Below, piece after piece: positions 9,974 to 59,496 of a stretch of DNA of 64,000 nt. Under the pieces are notes generated by a model. It searched no databases, had not been told where the DNA came from, and worked only from the letters and a program-made list of their open reading frames with translations. Position 1 is the first letter of the stretch. Each line of letters opens with the position of its first letter. Source of the stretch: Podospora anserina (lineage: Eukaryota); NCBI GenBank assembly GCA_017654855.1, contig CM030334.1:248001-312000 (forward strand). Reading direction: 5' to 3'. Made by a program: the position numbers and the translations under genes.

Positions 9974-10330
9974 CTAAACCTTCTCCGCCTCACCCCCAGG
10001 AGCAGCGGCAGCAGGAGCAGCAACCTTTTTGACAGTCCTCTTCCTCCTCTTCTTCCCGTCCCCGGGAACGATCCCCGCATTGGGCGGCGCATCCAACACC
10101 CACCTCGCCACTGCCAAAGCCCTATCGCTCCCAACAGGGTACTCCTTCTCGAGCTCATGCCTACCTGGCCCACCACCATTCCCATTCCCTTGGGCACGGG
10201 CAACAACCCCGCCATTCCCATCGCTCGTGACCTTTTGCCCGTCAATGTCTAAATTCCCGATTGCCCCTTCTAAACTAGACCCATCATCATCCTCATCATC
10301 ATGACCATTTGCCGGGAGTAGTAGTAGTAG

Positions 10331-10373
<43 letters not shown>

Positions 10374-12493
10374 GGTTGTTGTGGTTGTTGTGGTTGTTGT
10401 GGTTGTTGTGGTTGTTGTGGTTGTTGTGGTTGTCCAGCCACAACACCGGATGTTATCTGCGCGCGTAGCTCAGCCACGGCATTCGCAAGCTGGTAGTCGT
10501 GCTCCGCCCTTAGCTGCCTGGCCAGCACGGCCTGCCGGAAACTCGGCTCGTCGCTCACCCGCTCGTCGCCCAAGGCGTCGAGAACAATCTGGTGATGCAA
10601 GCGGTCCTTGCGCTGTTTTTCTGTCTCGACTGGGACAGGAAATGGGAAGGGGGAGGGAAGCTCCTTCAGTTCGGTGGATACTTCTGATCCGGTGGTGTCT
10701 GACGACGGCAGTGCAGGTTTGGACTGCGGCGGCTGGTGCTGAAGATGATGCAGCGGAGAGGAACCATTCGGGTGCAAAACGGGCACCGGAGCTGGCGCGC
10801 AGAGATCATCCCATGCGCCTGCTAGCTGGATCCAGTTTCCTCCTGCGCGCAGAACCTCGACCCAGTCCGTGCGGGCGGGGGAGCGACTAGCTTGGAAGGC
10901 TGGGTAGCCGTCTGCTAGGCGGGCCAGGCGGGCGACCATGTAGGCGTGGCGGAGGAGCTCCTTGGCCGAGGTCTGGATGAGACAGTGGCAGAGTAAGAGA
11001 GCGTGGAGAGCGTCGGCCAAAAGAGGGTGGTATGTCAGTGTTTCTGTGGTGACGGGAGAAAGAACGGGCGGAGGTGGCTGGTGTGCCTGCATTGAGGCTA
11101 GGTCCGTGATGGGATACGGCGGGAGATCTGGTGGTGGCGAAGGAGCAAACAGATCCGAGAGGACGTAGATGCGGTGTGGTTTCTGTGCGGTTCTCTCGTC
11201 GTTTCCAACGGGCGACGCAGACTTGGTGGTGTGGCGGGGAACACGGACGCCGTTGGCGATAGAGTTCACCTTGCGGGCAAAGTCCTCGGCGATGTCCAAG
11301 GGTAGATCGGGCGAGTACTCGAAATGGGAAAGGTAAGTCATGTAGTCACGAAGCGCCCGCTTCGCATTCTGTCTCACATGCTGCCTCGCCTCCAGAACCT
11401 CGGGGGACAATGGCGGGGAGGCCTGGTCGCCGTCGCTGTCCGGTTCTGGCTCTTGGGGAGAGCCGTCCGGGAAGGCTGCGTCAACATGCTGGCAGGCCAT
11501 GGTGAGGTAGACTCCAGCACGTTGGAACAAAAGCTGTGTCTCCAGGCTGCTCGGCTGCTCTTCTTCCTTCAAGACAACATCCTCGGTTCTTCGCGCCGTC
11601 CTTTGCGCCACCTGCTGCTCGGCTTCGGCCTCCTTTCCTGCATAACGGTGGGTTGGTCGGCGAAGGCGATGGACCCTCAGGGCGTCTGTGAAATCGGCGA
11701 CGGCCCCTTGAAAGTCCTCCTTGAATATCTTGACGATGCCTCGAGTCCTCAGAGGCTCTGGGTCCGAGGGATTCTCGTGTATCGCTTCGTCCAATGGCTG
11801 CAAGCTCGTGCATTCGGCAAGCTGTCGACTCGGAATCTTTTCGTGAAAGAAGTGCACATATTTGGCGTCGCTGTCGTCCGGACTCCGTTGAAGCACCAAA
11901 GAAGCAACCTCCTCCAGTGCCGAAGCGCTCTGCATGGTCGAGACGCTACAGGCTACTTCATCCAGCTTGTACGCCTTGCAAAGCTTGTGGGTCGCATCTT
12001 TTCGCATTCGATGTTTTCTCTCCGGACTTAGCTTTGCTTGGTTTCCTGGACGAAAGCCAAACCCCAGGCCCAACGCGGCTGCATGGTGTAGGCCGGGGAT
12101 GCTCTGCTGGCTGAGAGAAGCAACGCCGCTCGCCGCGCGCACAGCCAGGTCAATGGCCTCGTCGACGAGTCTCCTAATCTTGACGAGGTCGAAAAACACG
12201 GCAGGATCGATCGGGCGGGGTCGAGGGGTGTTGTAATTGATATTGGCCAGAGTCTCAATGACCTCGGGGGGGAGCTGGAGCCATGGGCCGTGGAAGGCGG
12301 ATATGTATCGCCAGTGTCTAGGAGTTGACAAGACACCAAGTCAGCAGGGGGGAACAGCAGGCAGTGCAGGACATTGGGCGCACTTGTTTCTGCATATTAT
12401 GAGTTGCTGCTGGGACCTAACCAGTTTCTGGTGGCCGAGGTCGCTTTCAGCCTCGACGAGGTCCTCTTGGGACGAAGACTTCTTTTTGGCCAT
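9974..12493 (-). CDS. Conserved fungal protein with TPR-like helices and a PQQ/polyQ tract, 1 intron
   Basis: ATG 12493 (MAKKKSSSQED...LIICRNK) splices to ORF 9974..12331 (HWRYISAFHGPWLQLPPE). TPR-like segment PEPLRTRGIVKIFKEDFQGAVADFTDALR; basic KKRRKR near the C-terminus. Confidence 0.82.
10318..10432 (-). repeat. Compound coding microsatellite (CCACAACAA)n-(CAA)n-(CTA)n encoding (PQQ)n, polyQ and a short polyL
   Basis: On + strand: (GTA)n, then (TTG)n, then (TTGTTGTGG)n. Confidence 0.95.
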
Positions 12494-13010
12494 GGTTGTT
12501 TGCTATGAGGGCTGTTTGGAGGAGGGACAGATGGACAAGAAGAGCCTTTTACGGCCAACAATGGACGGAGAGAAGCAGTCGAAATATGGCCATTGGAGTT
12601 ACCCCAAACGTCCGTGATCCATGTTAAAACTGTAACTGGAACTGGAACTGAAAATCAGAGGTTCGACTAAGCTTCCGGCCGTGGGTAAGTACTGAGAAGG
12701 ACCACTTCGTGGTACATATGACGCGGGTTTTCCACCACCCCACAAAATGCCAAGGCTATCACGTGAACCCCTCGCTTCGACCTCTTGCATATATTTCTCG
12801 GTGAGAATTACATTCCAACAAACGGTCACTTTCATTCTTTGCAAAATTATTACTAAACAGACCCGTAGTAGGTACATTCTCTCTTCCACGAAGCGAAAAA
12901 ATAAAATATCAAAAAGCCAAGGACGCGTAAACAAGTGTAAATGTGAAGAAATGACGAGAAGAAAGACAGAGCCTCCAGATCCATGGCGCATATTACATGA
13001 TGTGAACGCC

Positions 13011-14407
13011 CTACCACGGTGTGGGAAGGGCGGCACGACCGTTGATGACTGGGGTGGGCAGGTAGCAGTCGGAACCTGTCGTCGATCCACCATCGCCGGG
13101 CTTTTCCAGCAAGTGTCAGCCATGCTTGGTCTCGTTTGAGACGCGAGAAAAAGGGTACTCACCTGCAGCTCACTGCAGCAAAGAGGGACGGCTTGGGTAG
13201 CTGGGCACGGCGCGTGGCTGAGCACGAATTCACCATCGCCTGTTTTTTTTTTTTTGTCATGGTCAGCAGCGCTTGATGAAGGAAGGGGAAGAAGGGTAGT
13301 GAGCTCACATCCGAGACCGATAAGTCCACCCAACAAGCCACCGGCAACACAGCACTGGGCAAAAGCGTCGCCGACATTGCACTGGAAGGAACGGAATGCA
13401 GTCACGATGGGCAGCGTGGTAAAGGTGACGCTGCTGGTGGTCGAGGTCGAAGTGGACGTGGTGATCGAGGTGCTGGGTGTCGCCGTGGTGCCAGTGAATA
13501 CGTCGACCGTGATGGTGCTGTACGCTGTGATGACGCTGATGGACCGGGTCGTGGTGGTCCCTGTGGGATCGGCTGTGTTGAAAACCGACACACGGAAGGC
13601 TGTGGGAGAGATGAGGACCGTCTGGATCGGGTGGACCGACACGTCTCTCCACATGATACAGGAGCAGGCGTAGTTGACCCGATTGACCGGCTCGGCCTCC
13701 CAGACAGCTGGCCGCGCAACAGCAGGCGCCTCTCCTTCTGCGCAGTACTCGGCCTCGGACGCGTCACTGCGCTTGGCCTTGGGAACGAAAAAGGTTGGCG
13801 AGGAGGTGATGGTTCCCGAAGTGGACGTTGTGGTGGTGGTCGTCGTCGTCGTGGATGGGTTGCCTCCGTTCAAGAGGACGCCCACACACAGACGCGCACC
13901 CAATACAAGGTTGCTGCAGAACCGGTTGATGCCGGGGTTGAGGTCCCGCAGCTGGCTGAAGGTGAGGCCATACGCCGAGTAGATCGAGTAACATGTATCC
14001 CCAGCCGCGACAACGTGGACTCCGCCGCAGACCAGTGTCGAAGTAGCCGACGTGCTTGTGGTGGTGGTGGAAGAAGTCGTGGTGGTGCTGGTGGTGCTGG
14101 TCACCCGGACATCAGGGAGAGTCGTGGTTTCTGTAGTCGAAATAGTCTCCCTTTGCACTCCAAAGCTAGCCAGGTCGAAGCTCAGCGTGATGGTTGATGT
14201 CCTGGTCCGGGCATAAACAAGAGAGGAGCAGTATCGCACCGCGTCGAGCCAGTCCTGGTTGACAGCCTCGCGGAAGCGAACTGCCCGGAGCAGACGATCA
14301 TTCTCGCAGACCCTGTTGATCTGGGTGAAGGTCAAGGGGTCGGGGTTTTGAGCGAGGGCTGAGCCCACCAGCACCGTCCAGGATACTACAAGCTGCGTCA
14401 ATTTCAT
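13011..14407 (-). CDS. Secreted LysM-domain protein with Thr-rich linkers and a C-terminal 8-Cys hydrophobin-like module, 2 introns
   Basis: Signal peptide MKLTQLVVSWTVLVGSALA; LysM CGGVHVVAAGDTCYSIYSAYGLTFSQLRDLNPGINRFCSNLVLGARLCV. Removing introns 13240-13308 and 13101-13162 gives C-CC-C-C-CC-C and a TAG at 13011-13013. Confidence 0.8.
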
Positions 14408-15024
14408 GTTGGCTTCGTCCAGGTGTGTCTGATCCGGGCTGGGGTGAGATGACTGGAGAGAGAGAGGTCACAAGAAGACAGCGTGGTGTTCGAACATAAA
14501 TCATGGTTTCGGATCTGATGTTGATGCAAGCCGGAATGCCCAACAGTCGCGTCGCGAGTAAACAAATTTCGTTGACTCCATTCCAACATGACTCCCTCTG
14601 CTGAGACACTTTCCAAAGCTCGGGACATCCTGTCTGTCCTCCCTTTTCAAAAGACGTGTTGGTATCATGAAATTGCTCCACAGACTCTTGGTGGTGGCAT
14701 GCGATCTTCTCTTGAATTGTCTCAACTTCTCCCTGTGCCTTGCCAGCTCCTGTAAAGCTCAGCTTGGTGTCTTACTGTCATTAGGGTCAAGAATTCCCAT
14801 GAGGAGAATATGATTTCACTACTTTCTGGCAATAGATCGATCGGTAATGCCCAGACTGCCTCTTCCAAAACAGCTGTTGGGCTGGGTGTTCCTTGCACCC
14901 GTCAGTAGCAACAATAAGGGTAGCCATCGTTACCATGTTTCAACATCAAGCGATGATAGAGATCCACATATCCCCAGCAAATTAACACATCATATCATTA
15001 CAACCGCCCCATTCCCACCGCTGA

Positions 15025-16464
15025 TCACTGCCTGCCATACCCAAACCTCGCCTCGTGGTCATATATACTCGGCATATTGTACAGCTCATGATCCTCCTCC
15101 GCCGCCTTGGGCTTTCTAGCACTTGTACACCTCCACAAGCAGAAATAGAGGGGGACCAACAGTATAAACATGCCCCCTGCCAGAACTGCATACCCCAACA
15201 TCACCAACCTTGTCTGCTCCGACAATTTCAGTCCCCTTTTTTTTTTTTTTTCCATGTTAGCATTCGTCCAAATTTCACGGCCATCACGCAAGCACTCACA
15301 ATCCATTATTCACCAACAACGCGACCCAAATCCCCCTCCCACCCCAAGCGTGCACCTGCTTCACCCACCCTCCATTCCCAACCACCTCCTGCCCCTCCGC
15401 TGCCCGCCTCCTGACCCAAACCCCCCATCCAACCATGGCCACCATCACCGCCACAGTCAACAACCCCAAAACCTGGTGCCCCGTTCCCATCTTGCTCGTA
15501 AGAACATGCTGCCCACTGATGACAAGCCCGGGCACCATCGCGCCTAGGGTAAACAGAAAGTAAATACTCCCAGTCGCAACATGCAGCTTGGGCCACTTCC
15601 TCCCCAGGAAAGCCGCAACAAGATTGTCGAATGGTGCGATGGCCAGGGCCACAATCGCAAACAGGATCCCGTGCGCGGTGGCGGCTTTGTTGCTTGACTT
15701 TTTGAGGGAGGGGTCGTCATCCGGGAAGGTGACGTGCTGAGTTATGTTTGTTGGTGTCCCCACCCCGCCGGGGCCGGTTGATTTGGAGATGTCGATGTTG
15801 AAAATGCCGTGGGCGACGTGTCGTCGGATGCGGGCGTCGAGGTCGTCGGTGGAGAAGGCGCCCGAGTTGGGGCCTACGGCGAACATTATCGGTGCGGTGG
15901 GGGTGTTGCTGGTCGGGATGGCGGGGTTGAAGGGGGCGGATTGGCTTTGGAGGTTGCGGCAGCTGTGGCAGGTGCCGTTGGCCGTCATTCGGCCTGTTTT
16001 TGGGGAGAGCTCGCTGCCAGGATGGAGGGTGATGCGGAGGGGGTGGTGGGTTGGTTCCGTGTTGCCGCTGGTGAAGGGGTTAGTCGACGATTATGAGGTG
16101 GGGAAAATGTGTGAAGGGGGGTCTACTTTGTGAACCGTGGGCTGACGGTGACTGATTTGCGGTCTGCGGATGGGTACATCACCAAAATTACCGAGTTTGC
16201 CATGCTGGACCCGAAGCCAATGGCCGAGTATTGATACCAATCCGGAGAGCTGACGTAAAAGTTGATATCGTTTGAGCCATCGTCTGGGAGGTTGATGGAA
16301 ATGATGGTGTTGGCCTCAGGGATAAAGACATTTGAAGCTTTGGTCTGACCCAAGACGAGATGTAATTGTGAGATGAGGTCTGTAGGTAGGTAGGTTAGTT
16401 CAACACCTGCAGATCCAAGCTATACAAACTTACAAAACATGAGCCACGGTAGTGATGAGGCCAT
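15025..16464 (-). CDS. DOMON (CDH-cytochrome-like) plus cytochrome b561 membrane protein, multi-exon
   Basis: ORF 16123..16353 (YSAIGFGSSMANSVILVMYPS...VTVSPR); ORF 15296..15988 (ANGTCHSC, IMFAVGP, IRRH..HG, then TM helices with His in AHGIL, LHV, HQVLG, VHAWGGR); last exon 15025..~15230. Start 16464 is inferred. Confidence 0.8.
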
Positions 16465-17389
16465 ATTTGTTTTAACCTGTTGCCAGCAACTTGAACACTG
16501 TGGAGAACGACCAAGAGAAATGGAGACTCAAAGAAAGAGAACTCCGGACCACTTCATGTATTATCATCATCATCAAGATGGAAATGGCCGTGCAAAACAA
16601 TGCAACCATGCAGATGTGCTTGCCGTCGGGATGTAGTTGTCGGCGGCTAACATCTCCAACTCTCCCTTGTCATTGGCTAGCCCTGTACTTGGAAGCGCTG
16701 CGCGCACCGTGACGGCAATACGCCTAGCACTTGCACCCCCAATCAACGACCTGTCACACGCAACCCCTTGGTGACAAAGGCCCAAAAATAGGCAAGCGGC
16801 AGTTGCTGGCTTTTACAACTGGTGAAACTTATTAGCATCCAAGAAATGGCCCAAGCTAATTTTCCTTTCAAGGTATCCAAGTCTAGAGAACAGATGGTGT
16901 GAATTTTCCCATGACAGGTTGATTATACAAAATGTGTAGAAGTTGTTTAAAAACTCGTTTAGAAACGGTTGCCGCGCTCACGTTTTGCCCGCCTTCTTTT
17001 TCTCAATTGAATCGAGTAGACTCTTGTATCCATGAATTTGTTTGTGCTGCACTTTTAAAACAAGCACTTGTTTGCATTGTCTGCAGTAAACCGTCGCCGA
17101 ACATTGTCCCTTCGGCAGCCATCTTCCTCCTCGCTGGCCAGGCTGAAGCGCTGCCTCGCCTTTAGCACTAACAGTCGCCGCAAATCATCTACAGCTCCGC
17201 GGACAGCACAGAGCTCCACTCTGTAAAAGAATAGAAGGTTCGTGTATACCTATCTACCAAAAGGTAGGGCTTCCTTTTTGCCTGGCACGCTGACCTAGGC
17301 CTCCAGGCCGCAATGCCTCCAATTCCAGGCGTCCACTTGGTGTATGATAACCGGCGAGTCCACAGGATTGATGACAGGGACAATGAGGC

Positions 17390-19397
17390 TTGGTCCTACA
17401 AACATGCTCGGAAGCGCAGACAATCAAAGTCTCCGAACAGAACCCAGAGATTATCCGACACATCAAGGACCGTCTCTACAAGACAGCCCACAAAAACAAA
17501 GGCTTCCTTGGATCCCATGATCGTGGAATGAGATTCGTTACTCGTGCTCAGTTTGACAACATCATCACACCCGAGGCTGTTCTTCAGGTAGTCGCCAAGC
17601 TGGCGTGTTACCAAGGTTTGACAGCAAGGGACCATATGCAAATTGCCCAAGATATCTACTGGGGCACAGAAGATGGACGCCGCTCGCCCTGTCGCCGACT
17701 GCTTGCTTCCCTCATCGGGACCGGGAATTCAGAAGCACTCGGCAGCATCAAAACACTGATCGATGAAGGCCTCAGTGACACCTGTCTTCCCCTCCTAGTT
17801 AAGGAAGTCATGGAGGAGGACACGCTGATATGTGCTCACCATGAACACCAACATGCATCCATAAACGACATGGACCTGGAGTCTCGAGAGACTTTCACCG
17901 CCCTCTGTCGATCCTTTTCAGTGCCCTTCATCAAATGGAAAGATGGCGGGAAGCATTGTCACTACGTCTTGAAAGGCGGCGGCCCTCTTCCTATGAGAGG
18001 GCCACTTCCAATGGAGAAAAAAGACAAGATGAATGAGGAAGGAGACTTTGGCGAGGTCTTCAAAGTTGAGATTGACCCAGGCGACAGGGACTTCGACCCA
18101 GAGGTAAGTGAAACTTCAGATTTTACATGACTGAACGAACGTTCAAGAAACTGATACTCTGAGGCAGAAAAACACCAACTTTTTTGCTTTAAAGAAGCTT
18201 AAGAAGCATAGTGACTCGAATGGCACTTCTCGTGCGGACGAGTTCGACCTGGAAATCAGGTCGTTGATCTTCGCCGAGAGTCGAGCTTTGAAGGTACCAG
18301 GCCCGGATGATCATGGGCAAACGAAAAGGCACTTGATCCAGCTCCTTGCAACATTCGAGGTGTACGATTCCAACGATCCAGAGCCGACATTCTACTTTCT
18401 GTTCCCACTGGCAAATTGTAACCTAAAGCAATTCTGGGAGAAGAAGCGCCACGATGCGACAAGGGAAGAGCATTGTGGTTGGATGGTTGAGCAGTTTTAC
18501 CTACTTGCCAAGGCCCTGCAGTGCGTCCACAATGAAAGGTCGCTGATGATCACGTCAAAGAGAACTGATTCCAACGTCTTTTGCCGGCATGGAGACATCA
18601 AACCATCGAACTTCCTGTTCTTTGAGGACTCTCAACCCGGCGGTCTGGGCAGGTTGGTTTTAGGTGACTTTGGTATGGCTAGATTTCACCGCAAAGGATC
18701 CAGATCAAGCCAGCCAGCAGGGGAGAGAATGGCCACGATTTCTTATCAAGCACCTGAGTTTGGCAAAGAGGATGTGGTATCTCTCAAGACCGACATCTTC
18801 AGTCTCGGATGCGTTTATTTAGAACACATTACGTGGCTTCTGATGGACTTCGAGGCCTTGGACAAGTTTATAGACGCCAGACTCGAGACAGATCCTGTGT
18901 ACGGTTTCCAGACAGATACCTTTTACAACGTGTCACAGTCCAAGGATTCCGTGTGGCTCAAGGAGGGCGTCAAGCGTTGGATCTGGGACCTGAAGCAGCA
19001 CAAAGACTGCGTGGAAGTTGTATATGATCTGTTGGAGATCATCGAGCACGACATGCTCGAAGCAAACCACCAGAAAAGGATCAACTCGGCAATGTTGGCT
19101 ACCGAATTGGAGAAAGTGTGGACCAAGTGGCAACGTAAGGATTCCCTCTACGGCGACAGGCACTGGAGAGAAAGTGAGATTGGTTCCAAAGCAATCAACA
19201 AGCCCAATTCCAGTGCTAAAGTGCTTGCTATTTCCAAAGAGCTCCTGTGGAAGCAAAAGGCTAACCGCGCGTCAAGACGGAAGATCGCCGACAACACCAC
19301 CCCAAACGACCACCAGAACCTTCAGGTAAAGGAACCAACTACAGTCGAAAATCCTTCTGGTCGCTTCGCCCTCGAAAGGGGCAAAACTTTCCACTAG
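17390..19397 (+). CDS. Fungal Ser/Thr protein kinase; start uncertain, intron ~18104-18167
   Basis: EGDFGEVFKV, FALKKL, HLIQLLATFE, RHGDIKPSNFL, LGDFGMA, SYQAPE, DIFSLGCVYLE. The first in-frame ATG is 17528, but the frame is open from 17387. Confidence 0.85.
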
Positions 19398-38907: not shown

Positions 38908-41900
38908 ATGGAATCCACCATGGATATTGCCCAACTGGTGGCTCAGATGCAGGATACACTGTCCACCATCCACACCACTCTCGCCTCTCTCAACACCGCC
39001 GAACACGATGCGAAGCTTGACGAGCTGGAAGCCAGGCGTGATAATACCATCAAACATTTGCTAGCCGCCTTTTCTGCCGAGTCCGAGGTCCTGCACCAAA
39101 AGAGACTGGCTCAGCGTGAAGAGATCGCCGAGCGCCGCAGGATCGAAGACGAGGAGCGGGAAAGACGGAGGCGCCAAGAAGATGAAGAGCTGGCAGAAAG
39201 AGACAAGCAAGAAGATGAAGCACGGGATGGCAGGCTTCTGCACGAGACAAATGAGGTGGAAGAGGAAACGGACCACCTTATGATTGAGATTGAGGAGGAA
39301 GCTCAGAGGGCCATTGATGAGGGGCAGAAGAAGTTGATGGGCCTGGAAGAACGGAGAAAGGTCCGCAACCCCTACCCAAGAGTATTATGTGTACCCCATG
39401 TGCTAACTGTCTCTCCAACAGGAGCTCAACCACCTCATCGAGGAGCAGCTGAGGGCACCAATCATCCCTTCTCCACCCAAGAGATCGAGGCGAGGCAGCA
39501 ACCTGCCGCCAGCTGTGGCTACACCAAGTAAGCCACCGGAGCCTGTGGCCCCCGAATCTCTCAATAATGACGGTGCAAAGGCTCTTGAGCCCGAGGACAT
39601 TTCTACGAGCAGACACGATGAGATCACCGAGACAGCCCACAAGTCGCCGACCATTCCGCAGGCGGACATGGTCAAAGAGTCGACTCTGAACACAGATGCC
39701 AACAGCCAGATGCAAGCCAGCCCCACCAATGATAGCAGACCGACATCTCGTCAGGACCGGCCTCTATTTGTCCAGCCGGTGATTTCGCGATCTGGGACCA
39801 TCATCCACGCTGACCAGCTTGAGGAGACGGCACGTGCTCCTGTCGAGCCCATTGGTATTCCCAATGGAAACACCGATTCACCTGATCCTTTGGACAGCCC
39901 GAAGCCCGATGTAACCTGGTGGGAAAACAAGAGAAGAGAAGAGGCAGAGCGTGCCCTGCACCATCCAGCGACTCCAAGCCCCTCATCTTCACAAAACGAA
40001 GCCGAGGACACCGGAGCCCCATCACAGTTGCCAGCTGAACATGGAGTCAAAGATGCCGATCAGCCCAGCTCTTCCCAGGCAACACCTGGCGCGAGTCGCC
40101 AAGCCGTGGAGAGCGACGATGTGACCCAGCCCGCCGAAGAGACACCCGCGATGCCGCAGTTGGATATGGATCAGGCTTTGTCCAACGAGACAACACGTGG
40201 AAGGAGCCAAACAACTGTCGATGTTATCGCCGCGGTAACGAAAGCGGCCAGTGTCGTCTCTGACAGCGCATCCGAGTACGATTTGTCTACGGCCGACCAT
40301 CCGACCGAAACAACCGTTGAAGGTGAAAAACCTCAGGCTTTACAGAATCTCAATGTGCCCGAACACGAACACGGTCCCGAGGAGGTGCCGTTGCCATTGA
40401 GCGCTACCGGTGACTCCTTCGACGCGGCAGGGGATATGTCCTTCGAGTCGGCGCATGAGCAGCCTGTCAGACTAGCATCTGCTATCTCCGATCATAGGCG
40501 GTCTCATGCCGGCGAGCACATCTCTTTTGCTGCCGATGAAGAACAAGAGAACACTCACAATGCTTCTTTTGAGCTCACCGAGGCCAGTGTTACTCCCGAA
40601 CATCACGGCTCCAAACTCTCCGTCAACGGGGACGCCGCTTCCTCCGTCTCATCGTACCACAATCAGCCGAGTATTGAGTACCGCACGACATCAGACGAGC
40701 CGCCCGCAGTTGGAGTTCCAGAAGGTATGGACGACTCTTGTTCCTTGACTGATACCTCCGAGTATTGCCAACACGAGGAGGTCTCTGACAGGCACCACCC
40801 ACACCGCCCTCCGCTCGTCCATTCAGAGTCGTACACGGGAGATGAGGGGGATGATGTCGATGTTGACATTCCGCTGCAACGAGTGCCTTCCCACCAACCG
40901 CCTAGAGAAGAGTTCGGGCATGAGGAGGTTGAAAACGATCAACATGCCGTCTCCGACCATGAAACAGACGTATGTCATGCTCTAGCGCCGGTCTCACAGG
41001 AACAAGAGCTGGATGAACACCCACACACCCCATCTCTCCAGGTAATCCGCGAGGATGAGGTCCTAGAGTCTACCGTCGAGGAAACGGTGGCTCCAGAACC
41101 ACAGCAGCATGGAGCTGTAGGCCTTGGGACCGAAGACAGCGCTCACGCAGAAAAGTCCATTGTGGAACATGACTCCCACCACGGCAGCGAGCTCGGTCAT
41201 GACGAAGACGTGCCAGCGCTGTCATCTTCCTCTGACCATGGTGACCATACCCATTCCTCCTACGACGACGGCTCACACCTTGAAGACGACTACGCCCAAC
41301 CCGAACCCATCACGCCTAACCCCCTCATCCTGCAGCCCTTTCGGACCGGCGACGGCGGCGATCGAGGATCGCCTGTTCGTGACCGAGACGTACCGAAGCT
41401 CCCGGATGACGTCGGTCGACACGGAGAGGGAGATGCTGAGCCCGGTGTCAGTGGTGCTGGAGGACAACCTGGTGATCAGGCCCATCTCGGAGTACTTCGA
41501 GACGATGGCTATGTGGGAGGGGGAGCAGCGGAAGGAGCGGAGGAGAAGGCCGAGGAGTCATTAGTTCCTGGGGCAGAGCATGTCAGTGACGCTGCTCTAC
41601 CGCCGGCCGGGCTGCAGAACGAAGAGGCTGCGGACGACCAGCTGCGTCGTGCTAGTCAAGTGTCGAATGAGTCGGTTGAGATGGACGCTGCGTATACGAC
41701 TACAGTGAATGGGGAGGGCGAGCTGTTTGATGATGATGATGACGATGACGATGACGATGATGAGGGTGATGCGGAAAGCGATGTCAGTGACATTGAGGAT
41801 GCTTATCTCAATGAGGAGGGTGTTGTCGATGCTGTCGTTGCGGCAATGGGACCTGAGCCTGAAGATCAAGAGCACACTGAAAAGGATGCTGCCGCAGTGA

Positions 41901-43192
41901 AGACCTCAGTGGATGAGGTTGCTGAGGTGCCTACCGAGGTACCTGCTGAGGCACCTGCTGAGCTTCAAGCTATTGTTGCAGCTGATGCTCCAGTTCATAC
42001 TTCAACTGATATTCCCCTTGATACCGTCCTCGACCGTCCAGTTGGGCCAACTGTCGAAATGCCAGAACCAATGGCAGCACAGGTTGAGGCTGGGGCTCAC
42101 ATCCAGGTACCAGACGAGACGCCATTCGCGACACCAATGGAAGTGCCAGGTCAAGCTGAGCCTAAGGCCCAGGTGCTAAATACCATGGGAGATTCGGACG
42201 GCACACCCGCTGTCTCGGCTACCGTCCCACCAGTTGAGACTCCAGAGCCAGATCATCCCCGGACAAGCCCCAACTGGGTCAACGAGGCTGACGACTACTT
42301 TGCTGAACTGGATCAAAGACAAGAGACACCTAGACTTCAGTTCTTTGAGCAACAGCGAACCGATGTAAAAACTTCCTTAGCATCAGATTCACAGACAGCC
42401 AGCCAAGGACTCTCAGCCAGCATTCACAATCCTGATCGCCCTCAAACACCCGACCAAGACACAGAGCTTGCTTACCAGGAACACCGATCAACACATCTCC
42501 ATAGCCAAGAGAAACAACAATCTTCGCCGCAGTCCGTCCGCAGCCAAAGCACCATCGATTCTGCGCCTCCATCGCCCGAACAACACACCGTGACAGACAC
42601 CCACGTCCCAGTCATCCGTGGCCTTGTCTCCACCCAGTCACCCAGCTACCAAACCGGCCGGCCACGGAACAACTCCCATCTCACCGAGTACGACAATCAC
42701 CGCGACGAATCCGAGGACACCCCATTAGCTAAATGGCGGCACCGAGAATCCACCCTTTCCATGCCCGACCAACCACCTGTTGCCCCCCTTGATACCACTC
42801 ACTCAAGCAAGCACTCCCACGCCAGCAGCGAATCCGGCGACCAAAAAGGCGGCAGCCTCTTCCAGCGCATGCGCAACGTATTTGAGCAACAATCCCACGC
42901 CTCCGACATCAACACCTCCCGCTCGTCCCACTCTCGCCCCATCAGCACCGACCGTCACAGCGGAGGGGGAGGCGGCGGGGGCGGTTCTGGACTCTGGGGT
43001 TCCGGCGGGCCTCTCTCCGGTCGTTTCGGCAAGTCCTGGTCTTCGTCATCGAACGAGCACCACCACCACAGGGACTACCACCACTCTCCCTACACCGAGG
43101 CGGGGCACTCCCCTGTTCGTGGCACCGAGGGCGATCATGATGCGTTGGACGAACGGAGTGGCTTGTTGGGCGGAAAGGAAGATCTAAATTGA
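38908..43192 (+). CDS. Large acidic, low-complexity protein with an N-terminal coiled coil, 1 intron
   Basis: ATG 38908 (MESTMDIAQLVAQMQ...E/R-rich coil); intron 39361-39421 with a GCTAAC branch site joins the 1225-codon ORF ending at TGA 43190-43192. Confidence 0.8.
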
Positions 43193-56441: not shown

Positions 56442-57441
56442 TCTTCTCAAGGGTGTGAATAGAGATATTAAGAGAATCAGGCAGAGGTTCACGCAATGTC
56501 AAGATAATCGTGCACAGAGCATCACAATGCTCATCGAGTGGATCTGGAACACGCCTCAAGGGGATGAAATGACTGTAGGTGATGTGTACGATCTCTGGCA
56601 GCATTGCCTTTCTCTGAGTATTTTTTTGATCATCACCTCAGACATTCAGAGCCACTGTTTCAAACAGAAGCCTCCATCATATCTTGTCCAGTTCAATGTC
56701 CAGGCCCCTGTCCTTGTCATCCCCGTCCACGCAGGGGTAGCTAACGCCAAGTCAAGCTACGCGCCTGGCCAGAACGTTCTCCTCTTCGGACCCTCGTCGA
56801 AATCCGAGAAGCTTGTTTTTACTACCACGTGAAGAAGCTTCCGAAAGTCGCCAGGTTCCATTCCTGCATCATGAGGGTTGGAATCAAGCATCTGCCTTGG
56901 GTGCACTTTCTTTATCTCACCTATGGTATCAATCACATTTACCCCATGTTGTCAGGTGAGGCTTGTTGGTTTGGATGTAATTTGGAGGTGGCAAGCGTGG
57001 CTGCATGATCCAATTTCTCCTTCAGTAGGGATTCCCCATCAAATCTGATGCTGGCTGTTTGGGTCCAGAACAATTCGATCCCCTGCTCCACAGAAGGATT
57101 AGCACTATTGAAATGCGCTAGACACCTCAGCAGGGAACTCAGCTCTCAAAATACACACTACGCCACTCAGTCGTCTGCTCTAGTGACCGTGATGATCCAA
57201 AATGGGCGACACTATTGACATCGCGGCCCCTTCGGTTGGGACACGATCAATTTGGAGTTTGGTGTCCAGTTCCAGACCTGAGCTGAATTCACAAGACAAT
57301 GGATTCCCCGGGATCTGATGATGTGGTGGTTGTCCGTGTCTTCTGCACTCTTATTTGGTCGGTTTCCCCACCTGGGAGTTTTGCTCTCTTGTTCTGACTG
57401 TCATTCTTCCTTGTCTTTGTTGACGAGATCGTGTCTTCAAG

Positions 57442-59496
57442 ATGGATTCCTCTCGCTCAAAGATGCGGCTCTTGTCGCTGGGTGCTCTCTTTCTCTCGAC
57501 CAGTTCTGCTCTCCCGAACGGGCTCTACTCCCGACAGGTAGATGATGCCCCCGAATACACGGTGCTCGGCTGCTTCGTCGACACTGGAAGCCGAGTGCTG
57601 CCCAGCAAGGTTATCAGCACCCACGACATGACGGCAGAGAAGTGCGCAGCCAACTGCCGCGGTTACGACTATTTCGGCACACAGTGGTCTTCGGAATGCT
57701 ACTGCGGCAGCAACAAGCCCACCGATGCCGCACCGGCCTCCGAATGCAACATGCCCTGCTCCGGAAACCCAGACGAGACATGCGGTGCAGGCATGAGGCT
57801 TAACGTCTACGAATTCGACCGAGCCTGCGACTCGGATACGGAGGAGCCCCCTGTGGTCATCTCGGGCTTCGAGTACAAAGGTTGCTACACAGACAACGTT
57901 CCCCAGCGCGTGCTGGGCGGCATCACGGTCGCTCAGCACGACATGACTCTGGAGAAGTGTGCTGCCACATGCACCGCCGGCGGATACGCGTTCTTCGGTG
58001 TCGAGTACGGGACAGAGTGCTTCTGCGGGACAAGTTTGGATGCCGCCAGCACCAAGGTGTCGGAGGGCGAGTGTTCCATGACCTGCATGGGCAACCATTC
58101 CCAGCAGTGTGGAGGCCCCAACCGGCTCAACATCTACGAGAAGCCAAACCCGGTCGGAGCTGGGAGCAACCTTGAGTCCGTTGGTGACTTCCACTATGCC
58201 TCATGCTGGACCGACAAGGTGGATGACCGCTCCCTCAAGGCTGTCGACTGGCGCACCGATGACATGACGGTTGAGAAGTGTGCCGACAGATGCAGCGAGT
58301 TTTCCTACTTCGGCCTCGAGTATTCACGTGAATGCTACTGTGGAAACGAGCTGACCGGACAGGCCGCACCCGAGAAAGACTGCGCCATGCTCTGTGTGGG
58401 TGCTCCCGGCCAGTGGTGTGGTGGCCCGGACAGAATGAACTTGTACACCAAGGCAACATCGACCTCGGTGACCACCTCTGCAGAAGTCACCACTCCCGTT
58501 GAGACCGAGACGGATACGCCGACCATCACCCCGGAGCCCGAAACAACGACTGCCCCGACCGAGCCAGAGACCACGACTTCAGATATTCCTGTCAGCACCA
58601 CCGAGCTGCCTTCCTCAACCGAGTCTTCCACCACCACGACCCAGGGGCCTGAGTTGACCACCATTACCGACTGCCCCCCTACGCCCACTTATAACGGAAA
58701 CCCCGAGTACTGCTATGTGTCTGGTGGTCTGCCGGCCGCTTGCCGACAGCTAGCATCTACGACTCTCAACTCACGCAGCGTGGGACCTTCGATGAGCGCT
58801 TGCAAGAGTGCTCTTACCCGCTACGGCATGCCCACCAACCCTGCGGCTACAGCTTGCTTTCCCACTACTGCGCTCCCCGCAGTCCCATCCTCTGCGCTTG
58901 CTCGCTCCGTCGCCGACAGCGTTTACGCCTGCCTCCACGCGCCCACTGCCTCCATCATATGCCAGTCTGATTCCGCCTGCGCCACAAACACCTACACCGT
59001 CGGTCAGGTGCCTTCGCCGACTCCCTCGACCGGTGTGGATCTGCTCAAGGGCGATGGCGGTTTTGAGGATGGCACTCTCGGAGACTGGGTCCTCGGGCCA
59101 TCGACCCATCTGGTGTCCACAACCATCAGCAACGCCCGTCCCAAGTCGGGCTCGGGGGGACTCCTCATGCGGTATCTCAACGTCAACGGAGGAGGAAACA
59201 GCTTGACGTACAACCTGCCCGTCGTCCCCGGCCAGCAGTATCGATTCAGCTTGTCTTTCCAGCACACGAACCCCAGTTCTGCTACCAGTTTGTACCTTTA
59301 TGTGTACCCCGACATTCTGCAAACATCCTTTACCGAAGCGCAGTTGAACGGGGCGCCAGCGAATGCTTGGGGGACAAGGGAAATCACCTTCACTGCGAAG
59401 GCTTCATGGGTGCAGCTTGTACTCAATGTCGGTGGGAACGTAGGTGCGACGAATGACGTGTATATTGATGATATCACCTTTGTCAGGTTGACCTAA
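57442..59496 (+). CDS. Secreted protein: 3 WSC domains, T/E/P linker, Cys-rich segment and C-terminal CBM4/9-like module
   Basis: Signal peptide (probably from the second Met); three GC(F/Y)xD...MTxEKC...YFGxE(Y/W)xxECYCG...CGG/AxxRLN-type repeats; GDGGFEDG..W...YIDDITF. Confidence 0.9.
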   Translation: MDSSRSKMRLLSLGALFLSTSSALPNGLYSRQVDDAPEYTVLGCFVDTGSRVLPSKVISTHDMTAEKCAANCRGYDYFGTQWSSECYCGSNKPTDAAPASECNMPCSGNPDETCGAGMRLNVYEFDRACDSDTEEPPVVISGFEYKGCYTDNVPQRVLGGITVAQHDMTLEKCAATCTAGGYAFFGVEYGTECFCGTSLDAASTKVSEGECSMTCMGNHSQQCGGPNRLNIYEKPNPVGAGSNLESVGDFHYASCWTDKVDDRSLKAVDWRTDDMTVEKCADRCSEFSYFGLEYSRECYCGNELTGQAAPEKDCAMLCVGAPGQWCGGPDRMNLYTKATSTSVTTSAEVTTPVETETDTPTITPEPETTTAPTEPETTTSDIPVSTTELPSSTESSTTTTQGPELTTITDCPPTPTYNGNPEYCYVSGGLPAACRQLASTTLNSRSVGPSMSACKSALTRYGMPTNPAATACFPTTALPAVPSSALARSVADSVYACLHAPTASIICQSDSACATNTYTVGQVPSPTPSTGVDLLKGDGGFEDGTLGDWVLGPSTHLVSTTISNARPKSGSGGLLMRYLNVNGGGNSLTYNLPVVPGQQYRFSLSFQHTNPSSATSLYLYVYPDILQTSFTEAQLNGAPANAWGTREITFTAKASWVQLVLNVGGNVGATNDVYIDDITFVRLT

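Follow-up and report, generated by a model that had tools for sequence, protein, structure and literature searches.

A predicted secreted LysM protein of Podospora anserina with a hydrophobin-like eight-cysteine module at its C-terminus

Hydrophobins with extensions, repeats, Kex2 sites (as in Hum3) or extra domains are already known. Class II hydrophobins measure about 90–110 residues, with extended forms also listed (PMC2253510, in part). In HFB6, QID3, HCf-6 and CFTH1/CPPH1, a C-terminal hydrophobin unit follows a long low-complexity extension (survey PMC12375992, in part), and a wall-binding role has been hypothesised for the extension of QID3 (PMC2253510, in part). Hum3 of the basidiomycete Ustilago maydis carries putative Kex2-type sites upstream of its C-terminal hydrophobin domain (PMC4617103, in part). 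Non-catalytic LysM proteins, such as Mg1LysM and those of the four-cysteine Tal6 type, combine secretion, the fungal-specific LysM pattern and Ser/Thr linkers. How hydrophobin layers are fastened to wall polysaccharides is little understood.

Here we describe a gene of Podospora anserina that lies in a window of 64,000 nucleotides (assembly GCA_017654855.1, contig CM030334.1, positions 248,001 to 312,000). Its predicted product joins a LysM domain to a hydrophobin-like module, a combination that appears to be new, is confined to a small clade and has a predicted function: it may serve to anchor a water-repellent module in the fungal wall. As in the extended hydrophobins, the module stands at the C-terminus; whereas their extensions are disordered and rich in Gly, Asn, Pro and Asp, this protein has a folded-type LysM domain and two cysteine clusters. 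It shares with Hum3 a Kex2-type site upstream of the module, but has LysM in place of repellent repeats and one such site rather than many. Unlike the non-catalytic LysM proteins, with which it has secretion, LysM pattern and linkers in common, it contains just one LysM, and the cysteine modules after it are not of the LysM kind. The first, sequence-only reading of this DNA had named no characterised protein of this architecture, and we likewise found none described in titles or abstracts, in a search with most subscription journals outside its scope. The word hydrophobin is absent from PMC13027065 and from the available part of the review of fungal LysM architectures PMC4392113, LysM and hydrophobin are not joined in PMC4869207, and neither LysM nor chitin occurs in the available main text of the hydrophobin survey PMC12375992. 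The supplement of that survey lists 87 hydrophobin-like domain hits in larger proteins, which may bear on novelty. Four longer class II candidates, too few to judge other fusions, were found, none with a LysM domain.

The gene runs on the minus strand from an ATG at 14407 to a stop at 13011, and encodes 421 residues once two introns are removed (Table 1). The spliced product contains the cysteine module C343-x8-CC-x13-C-x10-C-x8-CC-x15-C404, followed by a 17-residue tail. Four of the 24 listed sequencing runs (X1, X3, X6 and X17) were compared at the locus. Exactly 62 and 69 nt are missing from contigs of X1, X3 and X6, which come from three studies, whereas contigs of the DNA-like run X17 retain both introns. 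No listed run is recorded as RNA; X1, X3 and X6 can nevertheless be safely read as such, because the spliced joints are present there and missing in the DNA-like run. The gene is transcribed and spliced, and both introns are removed exactly as drawn beforehand from the letters alone. The spliced contigs of X3 and X6 span 12852–14443 and 12922–14451, respectively. Within 13420–12900, the GCTGAC words of the two introns are the sole branch-type words, and two of the three donor-type words are those used by the introns. An unspliced read-through product of 602 residues is ruled out by the spliced contigs. A poly(A) run of the minus strand in intron 1, between branch site and acceptor (13242–13254), is one base longer in X17.

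Table 1. Features of the gene and its predicted product, in window coordinates
Feature	Positions	Strand	Remarks
Longest spliced contig (X1)	12851..14551	(-)	contigs fix neither transcript ends nor strand
Exon 1, coding part	13309..14407	(-)	residues 1-366 plus 1 nt
Intron 1	13240..13308	(-)	69 nt, GTGAGC..GCTGAC..ACAG, phase 1, splits C4 codon
Exon 2	13163..13239	(-)	77 nt; rest of C4, C5, C6C7
Intron 2	13101..13162	(-)	62 nt, GTGAGT..GCTGAC..AAG, phase 0, four codons past C7
Exon 3	13011..13100	(-)	polar C7-C8 loop, C8, 17-residue tail, stop
Signal-peptide-like residues 1-19	14351..14407	(-)	GRAVY 1.36; flag 'signalp, ext' in PMC3689799 (in part)
N-terminal non-repetitive segment, residues 20-66, with C34 and C60	14210..14350	(-)	no Pfam family
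Ser/Thr-rich stalk 1, residues 67-125	14033..14209	(-)	58% S+T
Single LysM, C127, C139, C164, C174, N157	13880..14032	(-)	Pfam PF01476, E 3.7e-7
Thr-rich linker, residues 177-209	13781..13879	(-)	
KAKR dibasic site, residues 210-213	13769..13780	(-)	candidate Kex2 site; KAKR/KARR in 4/4 relatives
Post-KR segment, residues 214-262, with C222, C248 and C250	13622..13768	(-)	no Pfam family
Ser/Thr-rich stalk 2, residues 263-338	13394..13621	(-)	50% S+T
Module, first part: C1, C2C3, hydrophobic C3-C4 loop	13309..13393	(-)	loop GRAVY 1.79

The two published qPCR primer sequences for PODANS_3_780 occur without mismatch in the gene, which identifies it as Pa_3_780 of the P. anserina complex. This gene is described as an 'uncharacterized protein' expressed on Avicel, on which its transcript is about 150-fold lower upon deletion of PaSNF1 (log2FC -7.2; PMC7299030, in part). 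It is elsewhere listed as 'unknown function, signalp, LysM', without a Neurospora orthologue (PMC3689799, in part). As it is not induced in incompatibility (fold changes 1.0–1.13; supplement of PMC3689799, in part), a role in non-self defence finds no support. A secretome table (PMC7161253) contains seven LysM proteins, none of 421 residues, under other identifiers that make mapping to Pa_3_780 impossible.

Among 13 matches from 8000 scored candidates, four are full-length relatives, namely those of Podospora bellae-mahoneyi, Apiosordaria backusii, Triangularia setosa and P. australis; all three of these that were looked up belong to the Sordariales. The P. bellae-mahoneyi model (P0002), a record named only hypothetical or LysM-containing, is identical at 416 of 421 residues, with five differences. 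Searching 1.84 billion representative sequences with a module profile in HMMER gave three matches, none beyond relatives in or near the alignment, and a word search for longer proteins gave five, all from the same clade. In the own genome, a whole-protein search returned at least 21 matches, three to the gene itself and 18 centred on the LysM and Thr-rich regions; among them neither the module nor the extra cysteine clusters occur a second time, and the gene is single-copy as far as this search reaches. Only two sequences, the window product and P0002, show all eight cysteines. The models P0003 and P0005 contain C1 to C7 and then read into intron 2, and P0004 is without C6C7. Errors in these three gene models probably mask the module. 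P0003 seems to retain both introns and P0005 intron 2, and P0004 is also without the C60 region.

The architecture upstream of the module agrees with what had been read from the letters. As in hydrophobins, secretion is predicted, from the hydrophobic residues 1–19 together with the SignalP flag, and the Thr-rich linkers are present, with three Ser/Thr-rich stretches of 49–58% S+T, the first of which is likely O-glycosylated. A GPI anchor is ruled out, given that the 17-residue tail has no hydrophobic end (GRAVY 0.09). The single LysM domain is of the fungal-specific type: the cysteines and the Asn spacing of the four-cysteine pattern (PMC4392113, in part) recur in all five sequences, four of which give a Pfam match above the cut-off. 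Its best matches in the PDB are the chitinase A LysM structures 5bum (E 3.4e-8) and 4pxv (E 3.3e-6). From its family and these PDB neighbours, we infer that the domain probably binds chitin. Segment 20–66 is conserved in P0002, P0003 and P0005, and residues 20–265 gave only leads below 0.8 in the ESM Atlas.

The KAKR site, the sole KR or RR in the window product and the only dibasic site in P0002 as well, lies between LysM and the cysteine module as predicted beforehand, 129 residues ahead of the first module cysteine. With Arg at P1 and Lys at P2 it agrees with the canonical Kex2 motif (PMC8528282, in part), as expected of a Kex2-processed protein with a Lys/Arg-Arg site in its linker. Cleavage at this site is probable. 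Five cysteines that the sequence-only reading had passed over, at 34, 60, 222, 248 and 250, form two clusters flanking the site, and the last three are invariant in all four relatives. With two cysteines before the cut and three after it, cleavage need not free LysM from the module. The two parts had been thought either tethered or released; the KR site is there for release, but the flanking clusters could keep the cleaved chains linked. We slightly favour that LysM and the module stay connected, uncut or through disulfides. Many secreted proteins of Pezizomycotina begin with a cluster of cysteines, continue with a Thr-rich spacer and a KR, and have a CxC cluster further on. By analogy, LysM would be inserted into such a frame.

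The module itself has the C-CC-C-C-CC-C order of hydrophobins. A generic hydrophobin cysteine pattern has no match in the six unspliced frames of the window. When the spliced protein was shuffled 100,000 times the pattern appeared twice, and when its last 83 residues alone were shuffled as often it appeared four times. The cysteine pattern is far above chance. A profile built from the four relatives, with no hydrophobin included, was searched against 177,635 PDB sequences and at E<=10 found only the class II hydrophobins HFBI (E 0.01) and HFBII (E 0.17). The alignment runs from C2C3 through C6C7, and residues other than cysteine also match ahead of C4 and ahead of C6C7; a third class II protein, NC2, was not matched. 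Gene structure points in the same direction. Intron 2 lies 45, 18 and 15 nt from C5, C6 and C7 in phase 0, as does the predicted intron in the genome's own class II gene. Read-through records (P0003, P0005, P0015, P0017 and P0018) show Val four codons past C7, as a GT donor gives. For the class I gene of the genome a single intron is predicted, seven codons past C7 and three codons beyond the place of intron 2. Two positionally conserved introns are described for Trichoderma class II genes (PMC2253510, in part). In sum, the module shares with class II proteins (HFBI 2fz6, HFBII 1r2m, NC2 4aog; PF06766) the cysteine order, a C5–C6 spacing of 8, a hydrophobic C3–C4 loop (GRAVY 1.32–1.79 across all four relatives) and two introns, the second at the same place and phase. 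We consider it probably hydrophobin-derived, though strongly diverged, and, judged by gene structure, the parent gene was most likely of class II. Two of the genome's own hydrophobin genes were located. The canonical class II gene (L002 1402–1834; contig C8 of G000, near 356516) encodes 102 residues with two predicted introns and the spacing 8,0,11,16,8,0,10. The EAS-like class I gene (L025; contig C4 of G000, near 2004670–2004807, minus strand) encodes 108 residues with one predicted intron and the spacing 8,0,14,8,5,0,16.

Other comparisons do not link the module to hydrophobins. No hydrophobin Pfam family matches it at E<=1 or E<=10, and genome searches with PF06766 and PF22354 gave matches at other loci, none at Pa_3_780; PF01185 found nothing in the genome, though its control gave no signal either. 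Alignments to three NC2-type class II proteins did not rise above cysteine-fixed shuffles (the real score was reached by 590, 75, 668, 308 and 476 of about 2000; best case 75/1999), a control in which HFBI and HFBII were not among the proteins, and those to the genome's own class II (152/2000) and class I (357/2000) proteins also fell within the shuffles. An hhalign comparison was weak (probability 0.9%, E 0.063), the single-sequence PDB search gave three chance matches, and residues 336–421 had no usable match in the ESM Atlas. AlphaFold2 predictions of the module with its four relatives (pLDDT 36.9) and after addition of class II rows (pLDDT 39.3, biased towards hydrophobin by construction) are uninformative on the fold, and a Foldseek search with the latter, uninformative model returned no match. 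Of the profile and structure checks proposed with the sequence-only reading, the PDB profile found HFBI and HFBII, Pfam found no hydrophobin and structure prediction was uninformative; hydrophobin ancestry is moderately supported by the PDB profile matches and the position of intron 2, against the missing Pfam family.

The spacing, as had been noted, fits neither class. Compared with class II (own gene and P0016), the C3–C4, C4–C5, C5–C6 and C7–C8 loops measure 13/10/8/15 versus 11/16/8/10, so that one of four agrees and C4–C5, the class II helix region, is six residues short. The lengths 8,13,10,8,15 are nearer to the class I gene (8,14,8,5,16) than to the class II gene (8,11,16,8,10), except at C5–C6, which is 8 instead of 5. 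Intron 1 has the same phase as in the own class II gene but is 9 nt off relative to C4, and exon 2 measures 77 nt versus 86 nt in that gene, whose introns are predicted. In class II the C7–C8 loop contributes to the hydrophobic face, and in class I EAS it is the aggregation segment (PMC12375992, in part); in the module it is polar, with a GRAVY of -1.15 versus +1.56 in a class II protein. As a result, of the hydrophobic, amphipathic film-forming module that had been proposed, the hydrophobic C3–C4 loop stands and film formation is weakened. The module also differs from class II in closing a 421-residue multidomain protein (208 residues after KR) rather than forming a small one, and from EAS-like class I (PF22354) in its intron pattern and in the lack of a class I chain among its PDB matches. 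We place it in neither class; hydrophobin-like working is plausible, and membership is not established. A CFEM domain is rejected as well: Pfam gives no such match, and CFEM domains are not known to contain CC pairs.

Taken together, these features are best explained, tentatively and with slightly less than even confidence, by a chitin-held stalk that presents a hydrophobin-derived tip. In this putative model, a hydrophobin gene, most likely of class II, would have been joined to a LysM/Thr-stalk gene, giving rise to the module. The product would be a mucin-like protein, secreted without a GPI anchor, on the surface of Podospora and its close relatives. Kex2 would cut it after KAKR in the Golgi, and the clusters C34, C60 and C222, C248, C250 would hold the two chains together or cross-link copies. 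LysM would settle on wall chitin, while the glycosylated stalk would act as a spacer and turn the hydrophobic C3–C4 loop outward. This would let the fungus adhere to hydrophobic surfaces, or give it a coat that repels water in part, as distinct from the free film of classical hydrophobins. Whether the module would be surface-active is an even call. A fuller version of this picture is doubtful: a chitin-anchored hydrophobin of intermediate type, with class II gene structure and class I-like loops, cut by Kex2, its two chains held together by a divided cysteine module that has LysM as an insertion, and fixed to the wall through the lectin instead of by self-assembly alone.

The hydrophobin-derived module could also have lost surface activity and serve as a disulfide-stabilised binding tip, for a protein, a lipid or a lignin-like surface, on the chitin-anchored stalk. 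The polar C7–C8 loop, the shortened helix region and the lost Pfam signal would agree with such a tip, and the genome keeps canonical class II and EAS-like class I genes for film formation; the C3–C4 loop, however, exceeds that of class II in length and hydrophobicity, and does so in all four relatives, and we regard this reading as rather unlikely. About as unlikely, or a shade more so, is a polyprotein in which Kex2 would free a LysM chain (20–213) and a stalk-hydrophobin chain (214–421) that are co-secreted and act apart, like Ustilago Hum3/Rep1. It would account for the one conserved, canonical KR (PMC8528282, in part), for its resemblance to the putative Kex2 sites ahead of the hydrophobin domain of Hum3 (PMC4617103, in part) and for C34 and C60, which could pair within the first chain. 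With three invariant cysteines after the cut and two before it, however, the odd one would stay unpaired unless chains or copies link, and the freed chain, 208 residues with a 125-residue extension, is unlike a mature hydrophobin. A convergent cysteine knot unrelated to hydrophobins, at the orphan tail of an ordinary single-LysM wall protein, would suit the lack of a significant link in shuffles, hhalign, Pfam and the Atlas and the modest PDB E-values, but is improbable given that the whole PDB sequence set yields only class II hydrophobins, that intron 2 agrees exactly in position and phase, and that a phase-1 intron lies at C4.

If the chitin-held, hydrophobin-derived tip is true, a natural LysM–hydrophobin fusion would open wall tethering to direct tests in a harmless saprotroph that is an easy genetic model, and could provide a template for chitin-targeted surfactant proteins, within the limits of one gene and one small clade. 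The locus further illustrates how hydrophobin-like domains escape annotation, since Pfam misses the module and three of the four public models of the relatives appear mis-spliced within it.

Judged by Pfam, no functional link was seen between Pa_3_780 and its adjoining genes. The upstream neighbour (15296–16419, minus strand) combines a CDH-cytochrome/DOMON-like region at its N-terminus (Pfam E 4e-6) with a membrane-spanning part, and the downstream one (9974–12340, minus strand) is a frame of 788 codons that contains poly-Q tracts and matches TPR weakly. A protein-kinase-like gene, in which a long N-terminal part has no match in Pfam, lies at 17387–19397 (plus strand), and an acidic, low-complexity frame of 1261 codons without Pfam match at 39407–43192 (plus strand). 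The segment 52001–54000 has a GC content of 0.35 versus about 0.52 elsewhere and is possibly a degenerate repeat. At 57424–59496 (plus strand), the window encodes another protein that looks secreted; it has three WSC domains, a stalk of Thr, Pro and Glu, a segment with cysteines and, at the C-terminus, a CBM_4_9-like domain.
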